A program made the position numbers and the translations under genes. The notes below the pieces were generated by a model. It was not told the origin of the DNA. It ran no database searches and saw only the letters and a program-made list of their open reading frames with translations. From Patescibacteria group bacterium (GTDB taxonomy: Bacteria > Patescibacteriota > Patescibacteriia > JAHJFT01), in assembly GCA_028710985.1 (NCBI GenBank), contig JAQTTB010000001.1, positions 457,864 to 521,863 of the forward strand: a DNA stretch of 64,000 bases, given 5' to 3'. This document shows, piece by piece, positions 1,144 to 54,162 of this stretch. The stretch's first letter is position 1. Each line of letters begins with the position of its first letter.

Positions 1144-1416
1144 ATGTTTTGTGTTTATGCAATTGATAGTTTGAATAGAAACTATATTTATATTGGCATT
1201 ACAAATAACTTGAGCCGCCGACTCCGACAGCATCAGGGCGGTAAAAATAAAACCACAGCGCCCTATCGTCCATTTAAACTGCTGTACAAAGAAGAGTATA
1301 ATACGAGAGCAGGGGCAAGGCAGCATGAAAAATATTTAAAGTCTGGCTGCGGTAAAGAGTGGATAAAGAGTAATTTTAAAAAACGCGCTAGCCTGCCTGC
1401 CGGCAGGCAGGCTTGA
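1144..1416 (+). CDS. GIY-YIG nuclease family protein (small stand-alone YhbQ/UPF0213-like)
   Basis: MFCVYAIDSLNRNYIYIGITNNLSRRLRQHQGG carries the GIY...YIG and R..H..G motifs; ATG is 8 nt after the tRNA-Leu CCA; 3' end reads through the 20-bp palindrome (LPAGRQA*). Confidence 0.8.
   Translation: MFCVYAIDSLNRNYIYIGITNNLSRRLRQHQGGKNKTTAPYRPFKLLYKEEYNTRAGARQHEKYLKSGCGKEWIKSNFKKRASLPAGRQA
1392..1411. repeat. Perfect 20-bp palindrome CCTGCCTGCCGGCAGGCAGG (family copy 1)
   Basis: Read directly; same element at 14710-14729 and as the C>T variant at 43526-43545 and 51744-51763. Confidence 0.9.
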
Positions 1417-1467
1417 GGTGCTAGTGGGGGCAACCCCGTGGAGGTTCAAGTCCTCTCCGCAGCACCA
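1412..1467 (+). pseudogene. tRNA-Leu-like 3' fragment (anticodon loop to CCA), diverged duplicate of 1081-1136
   Basis: CTTGAGGT-GCTAG-TGGGGGCAACCCCGTG-GAGG-TTCAAGT-CCTC-CCGCAGC-A-CCA; the 3' acceptor strand does not pair with any adjacent 5' half; 5' stem CTAG(C) lies immediately upstream of the palindrome. Confidence 0.5.
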
Positions 1468-1470
1468 GAC

Positions 1471-14490: not shown

Positions 14491-14709
14491 AGCCCTTCCT
14501 ACAATGTGTTGGGCAATTATAATCGTTTTCTAGCATCACTCTTGTTTGCTTTCAGCAGGACATACTTTTGTAACCAAAAGTATGCAAAAGTTTCGGGGGC
14601 GCAAATTCGCTCTCGAATATAGGTAATGATTTACCGATTTAATCCACGCTCAGTTGCGCCCCCGAACCCCAGGGCACTGGTCAAGACGTTCTTAAAGGGT
14701 TCTCTCCCT

Positions 14710-14729
14710 CCTGCCTGCCGGCAGGCAGG
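14710..14729. repeat. Perfect 20-bp palindrome CCTGCCTGCCGGCAGGCAGG (copy 2), nested in a larger inverted repeat TCTCTCCCTC...GGGAGAGGCAGAGAGGG
   Basis: Read directly. Confidence 0.9.
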
Positions 14730-14796
14730 TTGTAAAGGGAGAGGCAGAGAGGGATTTTACGTCGTCGGTTAGGGCAGGGGTTAGGTAAGAAATAAT

Positions 14797-41626: not shown

Positions 41627-43579
41627 ATGCCATTCCGACCAAAAGAAGCCGTTGCTCCTGAAGCCAAAACCGGCGCGGTTGCGCCGACCGGCCGCATCGT
41701 GCGGCGCGAGGCCGAGGCGCGCGCCGAGGCCGAGCGAGAACGCATCGTACTTGAAGAAGAGCGCATTTATCGCCGCGGTGTTGTTTCCATCCGCGACCTG
41801 ATCGCGCCGGCCGCTTTTGAAGTAAAACCGAACTATCTCCGGCTCGGCGACAGCTTTTGCCGCACGATTTTTATTGTCACTTATCCGCGCTATGTTTCGG
41901 TTGGATGGGCGACGCCGGTTATCAACTATAATCACACCCTGGATATCGCCATGTTTTTCTATCCAGTCAAGGCGCCGATAATTTTAAAACAGCTCAAGAA
42001 TAAAGTCGGCGTTCTGGAGGCCCAGATCATGGCCGATTCGGAAAAAGGCGCTCCTCGCGATCCGATTCGCGAAACCGCACTCCGCGACATTGAACAGCTT
42101 CGCGACGACCTGACGCAGGGGATTGAGCATTTTTTTCAATTCGCTTTGTACATTACGATTTACGCGAAAGATGTTACGGAACTGGATAAGATATCAACCG
42201 ATATCGAAACCATCTTCGGTTCAAAATTGATTTATTCCAAGCGCGTTCTTTATCAGTCCGAGCAGGGCTTTAATTCCACTGTGCCGCTCGCGAACGACGA
42301 GCTCATGATTACCTTCAATATGAACACCTCGCCGATTGCTTCGTCGTTCCCGTTCACTTCGGCCGAGCTTACTTCGGACAACGGCATACTCTACGGAATA
42401 AACCGCCACAACAACAGCCTGATTCTCTTTGACCGTTTCTCCATGCCGAACGCCAACATGGTTGTTTTTGCCACTTCCGGCGCCGGCAAGAGTTATGCCG
42501 TAAAACTGGAAATCTTGCGCAGCCTGATGCTTGGCACGGATGTTCTCGTCATTGATCCGGAAATGGAATACAAGCACCTTTCCGACGCGGTCGGCGGCAC
42601 CTACATCAATATTTCCCTGGCTTCGGAAAGCAAGATTAATCCGTTCGATCTGCCGCGGCCCATGGGCGAGGATATCAGCACCGAGGATATTATCCGGAGC
42701 GCCGTAATTACTCTCAAGGGTTTGCTCCGCATCATGCTCGGCAAGCTCACTACGGCCGAGGATTCGCTTTTGGATCGCGCGCTTCTTGAAACCTATGCTA
42801 AGCGCGATATTACGCCAAGTTCCGATCTTTCTACCGTCGAGCCGCCGATTATGCAGGATTTGCAGGAAGTGCTCGAGGGCATGGAAGGTACCGGCGATTT
42901 GGTTGTCCGGCTCAAGAAATTCACTGACGGCACATTTGCCGGTCTCTTGAACTCGCCGACCACGGTCACTATGAAAGCCCAGCTCGTGGTCTTCAGCGTG
43001 CGCGATCTTGAGGACGAGCTCCGTCCGATTGCTATCTATACCATCATCAACTACATTTGGAATGTCGTGCGCTCGGAGAGCAAAAAACGCATTCTCACGA
43101 TTGACGAAGCCTGGTGGCTGATGATGCACGAGGACAGCGCAAAATTTATTTTCGCCTTGGTCAAACGCTGCCGGAAATACTATCTCGGCATTACCACCAT
43201 CACGCAGGATGTTAACGATTTTTTGTCCAATCCGTACGGCCGCTCTATTGTCACTAACTCCTCAATGCAGATTCTGATGAAACAGTCGCCGGCCGCGGTT
43301 GATTTGGTGCAAAAAACTTTTCTTCTCACCGAGGGGGAGAAATATCTTCTTCTTGAGTCCGCGGTCGGAGAGGGGATTTTCTTCGCCGGCACAAAGCACG
43401 CGGCGATCAAGGTGGTTGCTTCGTATACCGAGGACCAGCTCATTACCACCGACCCGCGCCAGCTCTTGGAAATAGAAGAATCAAAAAAGCAATTCGCCGA
43501 AGAGGTGCTCGGTCAGTCCGAAGCCCTGCCTGCCGGTAGGCAGGGCGCTTCCGGGGAACCCCCAGCAATAAATATCTAA
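41627..43579 (+). CDS. VirB4/TraC-family type IV secretion ATPase (middle and ATPase domains)
   Basis: IAPAAFEVKPNYLRLGDSFCRTIFIVTYPRYVSVGW; Walker A FATSGAGKS; Walker B ILTIDEAWWLM; C-terminus carries the palindrome insert (EALPAGRQGAS). Confidence 0.8.
   Translation: MPFRPKEAVAPEAKTGAVAPTGRIVRREAEARAEAERERIVLEEERIYRRGVVSIRDLIAPAAFEVKPNYLRLGDSFCRTIFIVTYPRYVSVGWATPVINYNHTLDIAMFFYPVKAPIILKQLKNKVGVLEAQIMADSEKGAPRDPIRETALRDIEQLRDDLTQGIEHFFQFALYITIYAKDVTELDKISTDIETIFGSKLIYSKRVLYQSEQGFNSTVPLANDELMITFNMNTSPIASSFPFTSAELTSDNGILYGINRHNNSLILFDRFSMPNANMVVFATSGAGKSYAVKLEILRSLMLGTDVLVIDPEMEYKHLSDAVGGTYINISLASESKINPFDLPRPMGEDISTEDIIRSAVITLKGLLRIMLGKLTTAEDSLLDRALLETYAKRDITPSSDLSTVEPPIMQDLQEVLEGMEGTGDLVVRLKKFTDGTFAGLLNSPTTVTMKAQLVVFSVRDLEDELRPIAIYTIINYIWNVVRSESKKRILTIDEAWWLMMHEDSAKFIFALVKRCRKYYLGITTITQDVNDFLSNPYGRSIVTNSSMQILMKQSPAAVDLVQKTFLLTEGEKYLLLESAVGEGIFFAGTKHAAIKVVASYTEDQLITTDPRQLLEIEESKKQFAEEVLGQSEALPAGRQGASGEPPAINI
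43526..43545. repeat. Palindrome-family copy 3, CCTGCCTGCCGGTAGGCAGG, in-frame inside the VirB4 CDS
   Basis: Read directly; the same 24-mer is present in the clpC-like gene in the same gene-relative orientation. Confidence 0.9.
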
Positions 43580-51594: not shown

Positions 51595-54162
51595 TTAATC
51601 GCTTATGCTTGCGGAAAAACTGAACTTTCCCCGCGATAAGCTGACTTTAACCGTATCTCCTTTGTTTATTTTACCATTTAAAACCATTTCGGACAAAGGA
51701 TTTTCCACCAAGTTTAGCAGAGTTTTCCGGACGGCGCGCGCGCCCTGCCTACCGGCAGGCAGGCCGTCGCCGGCGTCAATGCAGCGGTCCGCGAGCGCCG
51801 GCACGATATTGAAGTTAAATTTAATACGCACGCCGCGGCTTTCCGCGCCAACGGCGATTTGATTAAGTTCTTTCTTTATGATGCTTTCAAGCGCCGTTCG
51901 ATCCAGGGAATTAAAGTAAATAATTGCGTCGAGCCGGTTTAGCAGTTCGGGCCGGATGCAGTCCTTGAGCCGGGCGTCCAAATCCTTTTTCAGATCGTCG
52001 AATTTCATCATTTCCCCATCTGGCCCGCTAAAGCCGATGCGGCCGGTTCCGGCGTCATAGCCAGCGTTTGAAGTAAGGATGATGACAGTATTTTTGAAAT
52101 TGATTTTCCGGCCGCTCGCATCGGTAATTTCGCCTCGGTCAAGAATCTGGAGCAGGAGAGCCTGCACATCGGCGTGGGCTTTATCAAATTCGTCAAAAAG
52201 AACCACGGCATAGGGTTTTTTCCTGACCTCGTCGGTGAATTTATTCCTTTCCTTGTATCCGATATAGCCGGCCGGCGAGCCCAGGAGCTTGGATGCCGAA
52301 TAGGATTCTTTGTATTCTGACATATTAATAAGCACGAGCGCGTCTTCGCGCGGATATATTTTTGCCGCGAGCGTGCGCGCGAGCTCGGTCTTGCCCACGC
52401 CGGTCGGTCCGACAAATAGAAAAGAGGCGAGTGGCCGCGTCGGATCCGAAAATCCGGCCTTGGCGCGGGAAAGCGCGGCGACAAGCTCGTCAATCGCCCG
52501 GTCCTGGCCGATGATGGTCTGGCTAAGCGCGTTTTTTAATTCAAAAAACTTCTGATCGCCGCTCGTGAGTTCCTGAGCCGGAATGCCAAGCTGCCGGGAT
52601 ATTACTTCCATAATGTGGCGGTCGGTGAGCTTGCCGTAGGATAGATTATTGCCTTCAGCCTCCTGCCGCGCGGTAATTACCGCGCGTTCAAGTTCTTTTT
52701 CTTTTGTCTTGAGGTCAATCGCTTCGGAATAGCGCTCGTCCAAAACCGCCCGCTGTTTAAGTTCGCGGACTTTATTAAATTCGTTTTCCAGCGCGCGGAT
52801 GCGGACAAGCCGCGGGTCAGCCGGCTGGGAAATTTTTATTCCGGACGCCGCTTCGTCAACGAGATCAATCGCTTTATCCGGCAAAAATTTATCGGAGAGA
52901 TAGCGCGTTGAAAGTTCAACTGCCGCGCGGATTGCTTGGTTGCTGATTTTAATTCGGTGAAATTTTTCATAATTCGGTCGGATTCCTTCAAGGATGTGCA
53001 CGGTCTCTTCCTTGCTCGGTTCGCGCACCACGATAGTTTGAAAACGTCGTTCAAGCGCCGGGTCGGATTCAATATGTTTTTTATATTCATCCAGTGTGGT
53101 CGCGCCGATGCACCGCAGTTCGCCGCGCGCGAGGGCCGGTTTCAGAATATTGGCCGCGTCAAGCGAGCCGGCGGTTGAGCCCGCGCCGATGATATTGTGC
53201 ACCTCGTCAATAAAAACAATCAGATTCTTATCGTTGCGGATTTCCTCAATAATCTGTTTGAGTCGCGATTCAAATTCGCCGCGGTACATGGTGCCGGCGA
53301 CGATGAGCGAAAGATCCAGGGCCAGAATTTTTTTGTCGGCAAGTTCGTCCGGCACTTCACCGAGCGTGATTCGTTTCGCGAGTCCCTCAACAATCGCGGT
53401 CTTGCCCACGCCCGGCTCGCCGATCAAAAGAGGATTATTCTTGTGTCTCCGGCAGAGAATCTGCATCAGCCGGACAATCTCATCCTGGCGTCCGATTAGG
53501 GGATCGATTTTTTTCTGCATTTCCGGAGATGTGAGATCAATGGAAAAAAAATCAAGCGCCGGAGTTTTTGATTTATCGGTTTGCCGGTAGGCAGAGTGCG
53601 CGTCCAGTCCGAGTTCTTCATCCACGACTTCCGCGTCAATCGGTTCGGCGGGCAATGCGCCGATGCCCGGCGCTTCGCCGCGGTCCGCAATTTCGGTAAA
53701 GCGGGACGCCATTTTCAGAATATTCTCAATCTGGTTTTTCAGTTTCGCAAGATCGACATGCTGCGCTTTGAGTTCGCGGATTATTGCCGCATCCCGGATC
53801 TCCATGAGACCGAAAAGAAGATGCTCGGTGCCCACGTACTTGTGCGAGAAAAGATTTGCCGCCAGCACCGCTTTTTCAATCGCTCGTTTTGCGTCCGGCG
53901 AAAGAGTCGGCGTGGGATTTTTTATTTTGGTTGCCGTGTCGCCCGGATTTTCGGAAGAAATATTTTTCCGTTGTCCGGCCGAGGGCCTGAAGTTCGTTTT
54001 GTTGATGATTTCATGAGCGATTGATCCGCGCTGTCCGGCAAGCGCGTTCATGAGCCCGAGCGGTTCAATATTTTTTTGATAATTCAAAATCGCGGCCTCC
54101 ATCGCTCGCGCGAGAACCTGTTTCAAATTTGTAGAAAATTTATCCAAGATGTCAATTTCCAT
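51595..54162 (-). CDS. Clp/Hsp100-family ATPase, ClpC-like (two Clp_N repeats, two AAA+ modules, short UVR-like middle region)
   Basis: LIGEPGVGKTAIVEGLA (Walker A1), LIVFIDEVH, FLFVGPTGVGKTELARTLA (Walker A2); about 330 aa between the two Walker A motifs; C-terminus carries the palindrome insert (GLPAGRQGARA). Confidence 0.85.
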   Translation of the reverse strand: MEIDILDKFSTNLKQVLARAMEAAILNYQKNIEPLGLMNALAGQRGSIAHEIINKTNFRPSAGQRKNISSENPGDTATKIKNPTPTLSPDAKRAIEKAVLAANLFSHKYVGTEHLLFGLMEIRDAAIIRELKAQHVDLAKLKNQIENILKMASRFTEIADRGEAPGIGALPAEPIDAEVVDEELGLDAHSAYRQTDKSKTPALDFFSIDLTSPEMQKKIDPLIGRQDEIVRLMQILCRRHKNNPLLIGEPGVGKTAIVEGLAKRITLGEVPDELADKKILALDLSLIVAGTMYRGEFESRLKQIIEEIRNDKNLIVFIDEVHNIIGAGSTAGSLDAANILKPALARGELRCIGATTLDEYKKHIESDPALERRFQTIVVREPSKEETVHILEGIRPNYEKFHRIKISNQAIRAAVELSTRYLSDKFLPDKAIDLVDEAASGIKISQPADPRLVRIRALENEFNKVRELKQRAVLDERYSEAIDLKTKEKELERAVITARQEAEGNNLSYGKLTDRHIMEVISRQLGIPAQELTSGDQKFFELKNALSQTIIGQDRAIDELVAALSRAKAGFSDPTRPLASFLFVGPTGVGKTELARTLAAKIYPREDALVLINMSEYKESYSASKLLGSPAGYIGYKERNKFTDEVRKKPYAVVLFDEFDKAHADVQALLLQILDRGEITDASGRKINFKNTVIILTSNAGYDAGTGRIGFSGPDGEMMKFDDLKKDLDARLKDCIRPELLNRLDAIIYFNSLDRTALESIIKKELNQIAVGAESRGVRIKFNFNIVPALADRCIDAGDGLPAGRQGARAVRKTLLNLVENPLSEMVLNGKINKGDTVKVSLSRGKFSFSASISD
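51744..51763. repeat. Palindrome-family copy 4, CCTGCCTACCGGCAGGCAGG on + (CCTGCCTGCCGGTAGGCAGG in gene sense), in-frame inside the clpC-like CDS
   Basis: Read directly. Confidence 0.9.

Follow-up and report, generated by a model that had tools for sequence, protein, structure and literature searches.

In a 64,000-nt (64 kb) stretch of DNA from a Patescibacteria group bacterium (hereafter the window, to which all coordinates refer), positions 1051-1467 hold an intact tRNA-Leu gene, a gene for a small GIY-YIG nuclease and a partial tRNA-Leu copy split by a perfect 20-nt palindrome, CCTGCCTGCCGGCAGGCAGG, which we call PAL. Judging from comparison with related loci, we consider it probable that this segment is one copy of a tiny mobile nuclease-plus-hairpin cassette, which would target tRNA-Leu genes and keep one intact tRNA through partial duplication of its target. 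The cassette consists of a GIY-YIG gene encoding about 80 residues with an SLX1/UPF0213-like fold, the 20-nt PAL, and tRNA-Leu sequence on both sides, intact on one and PAL-split and partial on the other. Because a PAL-split partial tRNA-Leu is fixed around this gene family, the nuclease gene, PAL and the tRNA piece are one feature rather than three coincidences, and we see a substantial chance that they represent a new type of minimal mobile element. Full-text literature searches (for PAL, its peptide LPAGRQA, and GIY-YIG combined with tRNA-Leu, Patescibacteria or Bacteroidetes) returned no description of the cassette; their coverage was incomplete and an earlier account is possible.

Anatomy of the cassette in the window

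The nuclease gene (1144-1416, forward strand) has 90 codons and encodes a single Pfam domain, PF01541 (E=1e-16). In an alignment with 26 homologues the catalytic residues Y5, Y16, R26 and E62 are invariant, and AlphaFold predicts one confident domain, with a predicted local distance difference test (pLDDT) score of 90 for the whole chain that drops below 70 in residues 81-90. Conservation stops near codon 80, and in the final ten or so codons (ASLPAGRQA) the reading frame merely continues into the tRNA remnant and PAL. The initial annotation of this DNA had thus rightly described an open reading frame (ORF) that runs through the palindrome to end in SLPAGRQA; its TGA stop lies inside the former anticodon loop. 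There is no separate DNA-binding domain, the protein core stopping at about 80 residues and the tail being low-confidence read-through. Among solved structures the protein comes closest, by sequence profile and by fold, to the UPF0213 proteins and to the nuclease domain of the structure-specific endonuclease SLX1, with I-TevI being more distant. A profile search returned 3408 cluster representatives at E<=1e-10, while the exact sequence of the window protein is not on record. Many of the database homologues carry spurious N- or C-terminal extensions such as MAELVDLPAGRQAR, which is the translation of a class-II tRNA D arm followed by PAL. Extensions of the form ...KLADLPAGRQAR... recur in P0005-P0007, P0011, P0016, P0022, P0023, P0025 and P0026, a systematic gene-calling artefact composed of D arm and PAL.

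On the forward strand just before the nuclease gene lies an intact tRNA-Leu(GAG) (1051-1136, copy 1), which is called by ARAGORN, scores 56.5 bits with the Rfam tRNA model and pairs GCCGGGA with TCCCGGC in its acceptor stem. At the other end of the gene, PAL (1392-1411) lies between positions 30 and 31 of a second tRNA-Leu (or 31 and 32, owing to a one-C ambiguity), and here it extends to 24 nt (1390-1413) with the flanking AG...CT. Beyond PAL from the nuclease gene, positions 1412-1467 of the same strand correspond to tRNA-Leu(GAG) positions 31-86 including CCA, with CCGCAGC as the 3' strand of the acceptor. This 56-nt copy had been annotated as about 85% identical to the 3' part of copy 1, and we count 47 of 56 identical positions (84%) against 1081-1136. 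As had also been read from the sequence, CTAG stands directly 5' of PAL, and deletion of PAL gives CTAG-CTTGAGGT-GCTAG, joining CTAG to CTTGAGGTGCTAG and restoring the anticodon arm. The match at 1412-1467 stands, but the tRNA-derived stretch does not start at 1412 as first thought: it really begins near 1383, since ACGCGCTAG (1383-1391, forward strand), between the nuclease gene and PAL, represents tRNA positions ~22-30 and agrees at 9/9 positions with the tRNA-Leu(GAG) of two related loci, L087 and L089.

The split copy had been called degenerate, a description that its comparison with the tRNA-Leu genes of relatives overturns. With PAL removed, 1383-1391 plus 1412-1467 is identical to the intact tRNA-Leu(GAG) of L087 at 63/65 positions and to the intact tRNA of L084, L085 and L092 at 61/62. 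The tRNA-Leu(GAG) of the relatives (L084, L085, L087, L089, L091, L092) reads GCTGCGG...CTAGCTTGAGGGGCTAGTGGGGGCAACCCCGTGGAGGTTCAAGTCCTCTCCGCAGCACCA, and when nt 1-22 of these genes are grafted onto the remnant, ARAGORN calls a tRNA-Leu(gag). Because of this 97-98% identity and the result of the graft, the remnant is a truncated piece (positions ~22-86, the 5' part being gone) of a genuine allele common in the lineage, and not a degenerate gene. The place of the missing 5' end is occupied by the 3' end of the nuclease gene.

On its own the remnant escapes tRNA detection: ARAGORN finds no tRNA in 1300-1480 whether PAL is kept or removed, and the Rfam tRNA model gives no match to the remnant at E<=10, only tRNA-Sec (17 bits) and mascRNA (18 bits) appearing below threshold. 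The tRNA finders thus detect no complete cloverleaf in 1346-1467, where the D arm of the relatives is absent and CCGCAGC has no acceptor partner. The heptamer GCTGCGG (1346-1352, forward strand), pointed out earlier in this connection, is indeed identical to the acceptor 5' strand of the relatives' tRNA, yet it codes for the G-C-G of the conserved nuclease motif SGCGKEW, which rules it out as a tRNA 5' end. Homologous nuclease genes have GGCTGTGG or GGATGCGG at this position, and since the motif is conserved in all homologues the identity with the acceptor strand is a coincidence. The 35 nt that follow, correctly noted as containing no D arm, are coding sequence that is likewise conserved in homologous nuclease genes.

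Recurrence, insertion sites and empty sites

Related loci were selected by protein similarity alone, with one genome per species of GTDB. From the >570 relatives that the search returned we retained the 80 best; the window, two syntenic loci and three contexts obtained by an exact look-up of proteins bring the total to 86 loci (numbered with the prefix L), some of the contexts being drawn from metagenome assemblies. From these loci the anatomy and the distribution of the cassette can be read directly. A tRNA-Leu gene lies on the same strand within 150 nt of the nuclease gene (<=150 nt) in 80/86 loci, all five tRNA-Leu anticodons occur, and the arrangement is found in at least six bacterial phyla. 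Carriers belong to Patescibacteria (including Saccharibacteria, Gracilibacteria and Peribacteria), Omnitrophota, Nitrospiraceae, Bacteroidota (including the cultured Algoriphagus and Mucilaginibacter) and Ignavibacteriota (including Melioribacter), and further ones are bins labelled Planctomycetales and Gammaproteobacteria.

Two arrangements recur. In arrangement A a partial 5' tRNA copy with PAL is followed by the nuclease gene and then the intact tRNA; in arrangement B, to which the window belongs, the intact tRNA comes before the nuclease gene and a partial 3' copy with PAL after it. The three contexts from the exact look-up share the order partial 5' tRNA-Leu(CAA), PAL, nuclease gene, intact tRNA-Leu(CAA). 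The nuclease gene is always on the strand of the tRNA, 5-25 nt from it in the commonest arrangement, and in the loci examined PAL is always at the outer end of the nuclease transcript. At nearly all related loci PAL, or a variant with the same arms, sits inside the partial tRNA copy on the side of the gene opposite the intact tRNA. The identical 20-mer accounts for 46/83 PAL copies at these loci, and loci that we had first scored as PAL-free carry variants with the arms CCTGCC(T)...(A)GGCAGG, again inside the partial tRNA copy; the variants measure 19-22 nt, or 38-39 nt with a nested hairpin, and differ by indels or nested inserts. In 47 copies both flanks abut PAL and are contiguous in tRNA numbering, and in 41 of these 47 the insertion is exactly 20 nt long. 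The initial annotation had pictured a tRNA-Leu copy hit by a palindromic element. A clean insertion at the 5' stem/loop junction of the anticodon arm is what we find as well, but the fixed architecture argues against a chance hit on a second gene.

Units may also be repeated within a genome: one genome has two occupied tRNA-Leu genes (L014, L017), and L066, L068 and L074 contain tandem units. Outside tRNA-Leu, a more distant GIY-YIG homologue in L148 (460-900) shows the same layout at a non-Leu tRNA, in whose D arm PAL is flanked by GGTAGCTCAGTTGGTA and GAGC. The full tRNA copy downstream in L148 was not recognised by ARAGORN and may contain an intron; introns are reported for tRNA genes of Patescibacteria.

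Within the tRNA, the commonest positions of PAL are the D loop (17 copies, between GGCGGAA and TTGGTAGAC) and the boundary of the D loop with its 3' stem (17 copies, between GGTAGA and CGCGC). The boundary of the anticodon 5' stem and loop is used in the window, L008, L039 and L067, and the other recurring sites are the boundary of the anticodon loop with its 3' stem and both boundaries of the T loop. Since the sites recur at a few loop or boundary places, the placement of PAL at stem/loop junctions is, within tRNA sequence, a genuine regularity. A purine precedes PAL in 95% of copies, and a pyrimidine follows it in 87%.

The two tRNA pieces beside PAL differ in their likeness to the neighbouring intact gene. 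Across loci the far-side piece, the one that PAL separates from the nuclease gene, matches the adjacent intact tRNA at 1089/1098 positions (99.2%), most such pieces being 100% identical, whereas the shorter piece between PAL and the gene is identical at 863/899 (96.0%). The repeat boundary usually falls at tRNA +1, within 2 nt. L092 has a foreign piece, of the L087 type, between PAL and the gene, while its positions 1-23 are local in both copies.

Syntenic relatives of the window (L084-L092), located via a neighbouring diacylglycerol-kinase-like protein, include both empty and occupied versions of one site. It is empty in L084, L085, L086, L088 and L091, where ferredoxin, tRNA-Leu and tRNA-Val follow one another with neither nuclease gene nor PAL, and the same tRNA is occupied, in arrangement A, in L087, L089 and L092. 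Between occupied L087 and empty L088 the flanks are 96.6% identical and the difference amounts to 322 nt. The insert of L087 includes a 31-nt direct repeat, which comprises tRNA positions 1-23, the 7 nt ahead of them and a single additional base, so that the cassette proper measures about 291 nt. In this insert of ~0.3 kb the GIY-YIG gene is the only ORF, with no tyrosine or serine recombinase, and integrase-type att duplication is thereby ruled out. The whole tRNA region of L087, with the 7 nt upstream, differs from that of L088 although the flanks match. The tRNA-Leu of L088 (3380-3466) is itself peculiar, being called as CAG and having mismatched acceptor strands (GCTGCGG versus CCTCGGC); it looks like a recombinant of two tRNA-Leu alleles, or a chimeric assembly.

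The window locus has had a more complicated history. In the gene order of 285-1849 the cassette lies upstream of the ferredoxin gene, whose stop codon abuts tRNA-Val, whereas all the relatives among L084-L092, which are 59-73% identical, have the order ferredoxin, tRNA-Leu, 1 nt, tRNA-Val. Copy 1 has no close counterpart among the tRNAs of the syntenic relatives; its acceptor and T stems differ from those of the remnant by compensated changes, and it is internally co-adapted. Read in this comparison, the remnant is probably the original resident gene with the lineage-typical allele, and copy 1, whose allele appears atypical for the lineage, would be the functional partner of the cassette. Because copy 1 and the remnant are different alleles and the gene order differs, a later tRNA replacement, or recombination between lineages with rearrangement, must be assumed. 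The sole closer sequence found, L116, is of the same strain (0 mismatches, with a 100% match of the diacylglycerol-kinase-like protein), and its contig ends inside the remnant.

PAL outside the cassette

The window holds four copies of PAL, compared with none in 100 shuffles of its sequence, and as single-stranded DNA the palindrome is predicted to fold into a hairpin of -8 kcal/mol. One solo copy is intergenic (14710-14729), between the arms of an 8-bp inverted repeat (ctctccct ... agggagag). The intergenic region around it (14590-14780) contains a long G+C-rich hairpin (tttcgggggcgcaa ... ttgcgcccccgaa) ahead of the PAL copy and matches no Rfam family at gathering score. A second copy, with one mismatch (43525-43544), lies in the C-terminal tail (...EALPAGRQGAS...) of a 650-aa ATPase encoded by an ORF at 41627-43579 on the forward strand, which by eye we take to be VirB4/TraC-like; PAL is within its last 20 codons, and the tail ends in EALPAGRQGASGEPPAINI. 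The third, again with one mismatch (51744-51763), forms an in-frame insertion of seven codons, GLPAGRQ, in a Clp-type AAA+ ATPase encoded on the reverse strand (51595-54162). It stands directly before the conserved GAR(P)LRR motif and is absent from 8 homologues; the insert measures 21 nt, PAL plus one base preserving the reading frame. The element had been credited with the C-termini of three ORFs, which holds for the nuclease ORF and for 41627-43579, but the copy at 51744 is internal to its ORF and the one at 14710 is intergenic. About 100 nt downstream of tRNA-Val there is also a degenerate hairpin, GGCAGGTTTCCCCGCCAGAGGCGGGCAGGC (1953-1982), which by eye appears PAL-related, being similar to the nested 39-nt variants in L009 and L013.

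Beyond bacterial genomes, the exact 20-mer occurs in only 35 stretches among 2.9 million viral contigs, mostly away from tRNAs and GIY-YIG genes. Two contigs labelled viral have PAL in the variable loop of a tRNA-Met: L118 (at 8616) and L141 (2239-2330). The gene in L141 is nevertheless recognised by ARAGORN as a tRNA-Met of 92 nt, PAL forming a long extra arm, and it may still be functional.

We considered several general rules for PAL. A role as an intrinsic terminator is ruled out here, as no T-run follows PAL. A rule that PAL enters at hairpin stem/loop junctions everywhere was dropped, because in a crude test of 86 distinct PAL sites, spanning inverted repeats were not above those at random positions; such placement is suggestive at the tRNA sites and in single cases (window 14710; L081 193; L137). 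Target-site duplication was likewise rejected as a rule, since perfect direct repeats of 7-14 nt flank just 3/86 sites (L119, L125, L135), although this is above chance (4/4988 controls).

Competing explanations and known systems

How might such a cassette move? We propose that it would enter a tRNA-Leu gene in a loop or where stem and loop meet (in the D loop, at the edge of the D stem, at the edges of the anticodon stem or in the T arm) and that insertion would duplicate the tRNA segment from the insertion point to the end of the tRNA, leaving one intact tRNA-Leu and the other piece beside PAL. The entering unit would comprise PAL, an old tRNA piece and the nuclease gene, and the gene would be transcribed together with the tRNA. 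The nuclease may act on folded single-stranded DNA, recognising PAL as its cognate site much as the Ssn nucleases (see below) do their hairpin repeats. We propose a unit with target duplication because of the empty and occupied sites, the 99.2% against 96.0% identity, the foreign inner piece of L092, the repeat boundary at +1, the multiple copies and the layout of L148. The same anatomy could be reached by other routes, such as cut-and-paste of a unit of one repeat period, or break repair with carried homology arms.

Several points weigh against this reading. The activity and movement of the cassette are deduced from comparative anatomy. In the window the far-side piece is 84% identical to the intact tRNA, a misfit with simple duplication, and the gene order, with the cassette upstream of ferredoxin, is unlike that of the relatives. 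Two PALs in one remnant (L039), together with the solo PALs, show that PAL can insert independently and need not be the end of the cassette. The preference for hairpin junctions at PAL sites outside tRNAs has no statistical support, and the target could instead be chosen by sequence, given the purine before and the pyrimidine after PAL. Selection on the ribosome-binding region could also produce the 99.2%/96.0% asymmetry, as could gene conversion. Finally, PAL does not match the published repeat motif of the Ssn enzymes.

A different view of the same loci is homing by double-strand-break repair, in which the nuclease would cut cassette-free tRNA-Leu genes as double-stranded DNA and the break would be repaired from the cassette allele; the flanking tRNA pieces would be carried homology arms, and PAL would disrupt the site that the enzyme recognises in the spare copy. 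The presence/absence polymorphism of one site fits this, and so do the different alleles of the intact tRNA and remnant in the window, which are expected with co-conversion from a foreign donor, and the altered tRNA region of L087 between matching flanks. There is also a precedent in SegB of phage T4, reportedly a GIY-YIG homing enzyme with a free-standing gene among clustered tRNA genes. We nonetheless regard homing as unlikely. A protein of ~80 residues with no DNA-binding domain is unlike the known GIY-YIG homing enzymes, an intact and apparently cleavable tRNA-Leu always stands beside the gene, and with arms of 15-25 nt recombination would have very little homology to work on. L092, whose spare piece and intact tRNA are both local in positions 1-23, favours target duplication. 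Most far-side pieces are perfectly identical to the neighbouring tRNA.

The module might alternatively be domesticated, the nuclease and PAL serving the host by restricting incoming single-stranded DNA, or PAL acting as a protective stem-loop of the mRNA, with the strong tRNA promoter being used for expression and the partial copies being old scars. The constant strand of the gene and its short distance from the tRNA fit co-transcription, PAL is always at the outer end of the nuclease transcript, and the Ssn enzyme of Neisseria affects transformation at the level of the host (PMC11893778). The patchy presence at the same site among close relatives, the tandem and multiple copies, and the occupation of all five tRNA-Leu anticodon types make a host function quite improbable as the main explanation; most duplicated pieces are perfectly identical, as expected of recent events, and with no T-run after PAL there is no intrinsic terminator here. 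Least credible, to the point that we would be surprised to see it borne out, is that a paralogous tRNA-Leu copy was struck by a dispersed palindrome and then decayed beside an unrelated GIY-YIG gene. PAL does disperse alone, as seen from the three solo copies in the window and the viral stretches mostly far from GIY-YIG genes, it occurs twice in the remnant of L039, and it lies inside tRNA-Met in L141 and L118. However, tRNA-Leu, the GIY-YIG gene and a PAL-split tRNA-Leu co-occur in 80/86 loci picked by protein similarity, the window remnant is undecayed (97-98% identical to the functional allele), and the 3' end of the nuclease gene stands where its 5' end would be.

The mobile cassette with target duplication is thus the reading we retain. 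Its boldest form is an autonomous mobile element of ~290 bp, whose 80-residue enzyme would recognise both a folded single-stranded tRNA-Leu gene and a 20-nt hairpin, insert by an undescribed route that duplicates part of the tRNA and leaves the host a working copy, and scatter the bare hairpin even in frame into essential genes; we hold this only as a tentative possibility. To our knowledge, such an element would be smaller than any known insertion sequence.

If the cassette is indeed mobile, the newly recognised single-domain GIY-YIG nucleases would gain a concrete part to play in nature, driving a minimal selfish element whose defined target, tRNA-Leu, has a structure known in detail. It would also account for a common annotation artefact, the false extensions of tRNA D arm and PAL in database proteins. 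Around these cassettes tRNA-Leu alleles are swapped or duplicated, which matters for tRNA gene evolution, for binning and for assembly, as illustrated by the contig of L116 that breaks inside the remnant. A 20-nt hairpin that is identical to the letter from Patescibacteria to Bacteroidota, together with an enzyme of 80 residues, makes an attractive candidate for a programmable single-stranded DNA tool, and cultured carriers exist (Algoriphagus, Mucilaginibacter, Melioribacter and Echinicola).

Parts of this anatomy are familiar from other systems. The GIY-YIG homing endonucleases (T4 SegB, I-TevI) share the catalytic domain with conserved Tyr, Tyr, Arg and Glu, the empty and occupied alleles at one site with possible co-conversion of flanking tRNA sequence, and, in SegB, the association with tRNA genes. 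They differ in having a linker and a DNA-binding domain (>200 aa in total), whereas the window protein is the catalytic domain alone, and they leave neither a palindrome nor a partial target duplication; I-TevI is moreover a weaker fold match to the window protein than SLX1 or UPF0213. Integrase islands in tRNA genes resemble the cassette in keeping an intact tRNA and in the partial tRNA copy that marks the far boundary of the insert. The cassette is only ~0.3 kb long and has no integrase, it duplicates either a 5' or a 3' portion of the tRNA, and its partial copy is PAL-split.

Short dispersed palindromic repeats that flank the gene of a hairpin-directed single-stranded DNA nuclease, thought to move them, are also known from REP/RAYT and IS200/IS605. 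Their nucleases are of the HUH/Y1 type rather than GIY-YIG, they have no tie to tRNA genes, and REPs, unlike PAL, are mostly intergenic. The palindromic elements of Rickettsia, 100-150 bp long, insert in frame into protein genes and also into RNA genes, an in-frame habit shared by the seven PAL codons in the Clp-type ATPase. PAL differs from them in its length of 20 nt and in its co-occurrence with a specific nuclease gene; we know of no dedicated nuclease gene for the Rickettsia elements.

Closest of all are the Ssn nucleases, single-domain GIY-YIG enzymes of ~94 aa whose cleavage is confined to single-stranded DNA, beside a hairpin repeat (NTS/SRM) that borders their own gene and is also dispersed over the genome (Chenal et al. 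2025, Nat Commun, PMC11893778). SsnA of Neisseria, which has an effect on transformation, is proposed to restrict incoming single-stranded DNA; the authors note the likeness to insertion sequences and REP/RAYT, and tRNA is not mentioned in their paper (PMC11893778). The window protein is similarly small and single-domain (90 aa, PF01541 only), its gene adjoins a short hairpin repeat that is also dispersed in the genome (PAL at the 3' end of the gene and at three other places in the window), and both systems have a very wide phylogenetic spread. The repeats themselves are unlike: PAL, a perfect palindrome of 20 nt, departs from the SRM motif, HGTCWYN(0-2)YYVSBRHN(0-5)WNVSBRGN(0-2)RNCYNB, and this motif has no match in the window or L116, nor in the surroundings of any of the four PAL copies. 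In addition, the gene of the cassette is linked to tRNA-Leu, and its repeat sits inside a duplicated piece of tRNA-Leu. The same genome holds, immediately before the start of the window (L116, 300-810), a second GIY-YIG gene (523-810), of the REKQLKRW type, whose 95-aa product (...REKQLKRWRRDKKEFLI...) is 37% identical to that of the window. We presume from the look of the family that it is Ssn-like, and the repeats that precede it (CGTCATCCCGA...TCGGAATGACG) seem by eye to be like the NTS core of Neisseria, although the published SRM pattern does not match them. By analogy, the cassette would work like an Ssn-repeat pair, with Ssn being the closest known system and the window nuclease a candidate relative rather than an established member of cd10448.

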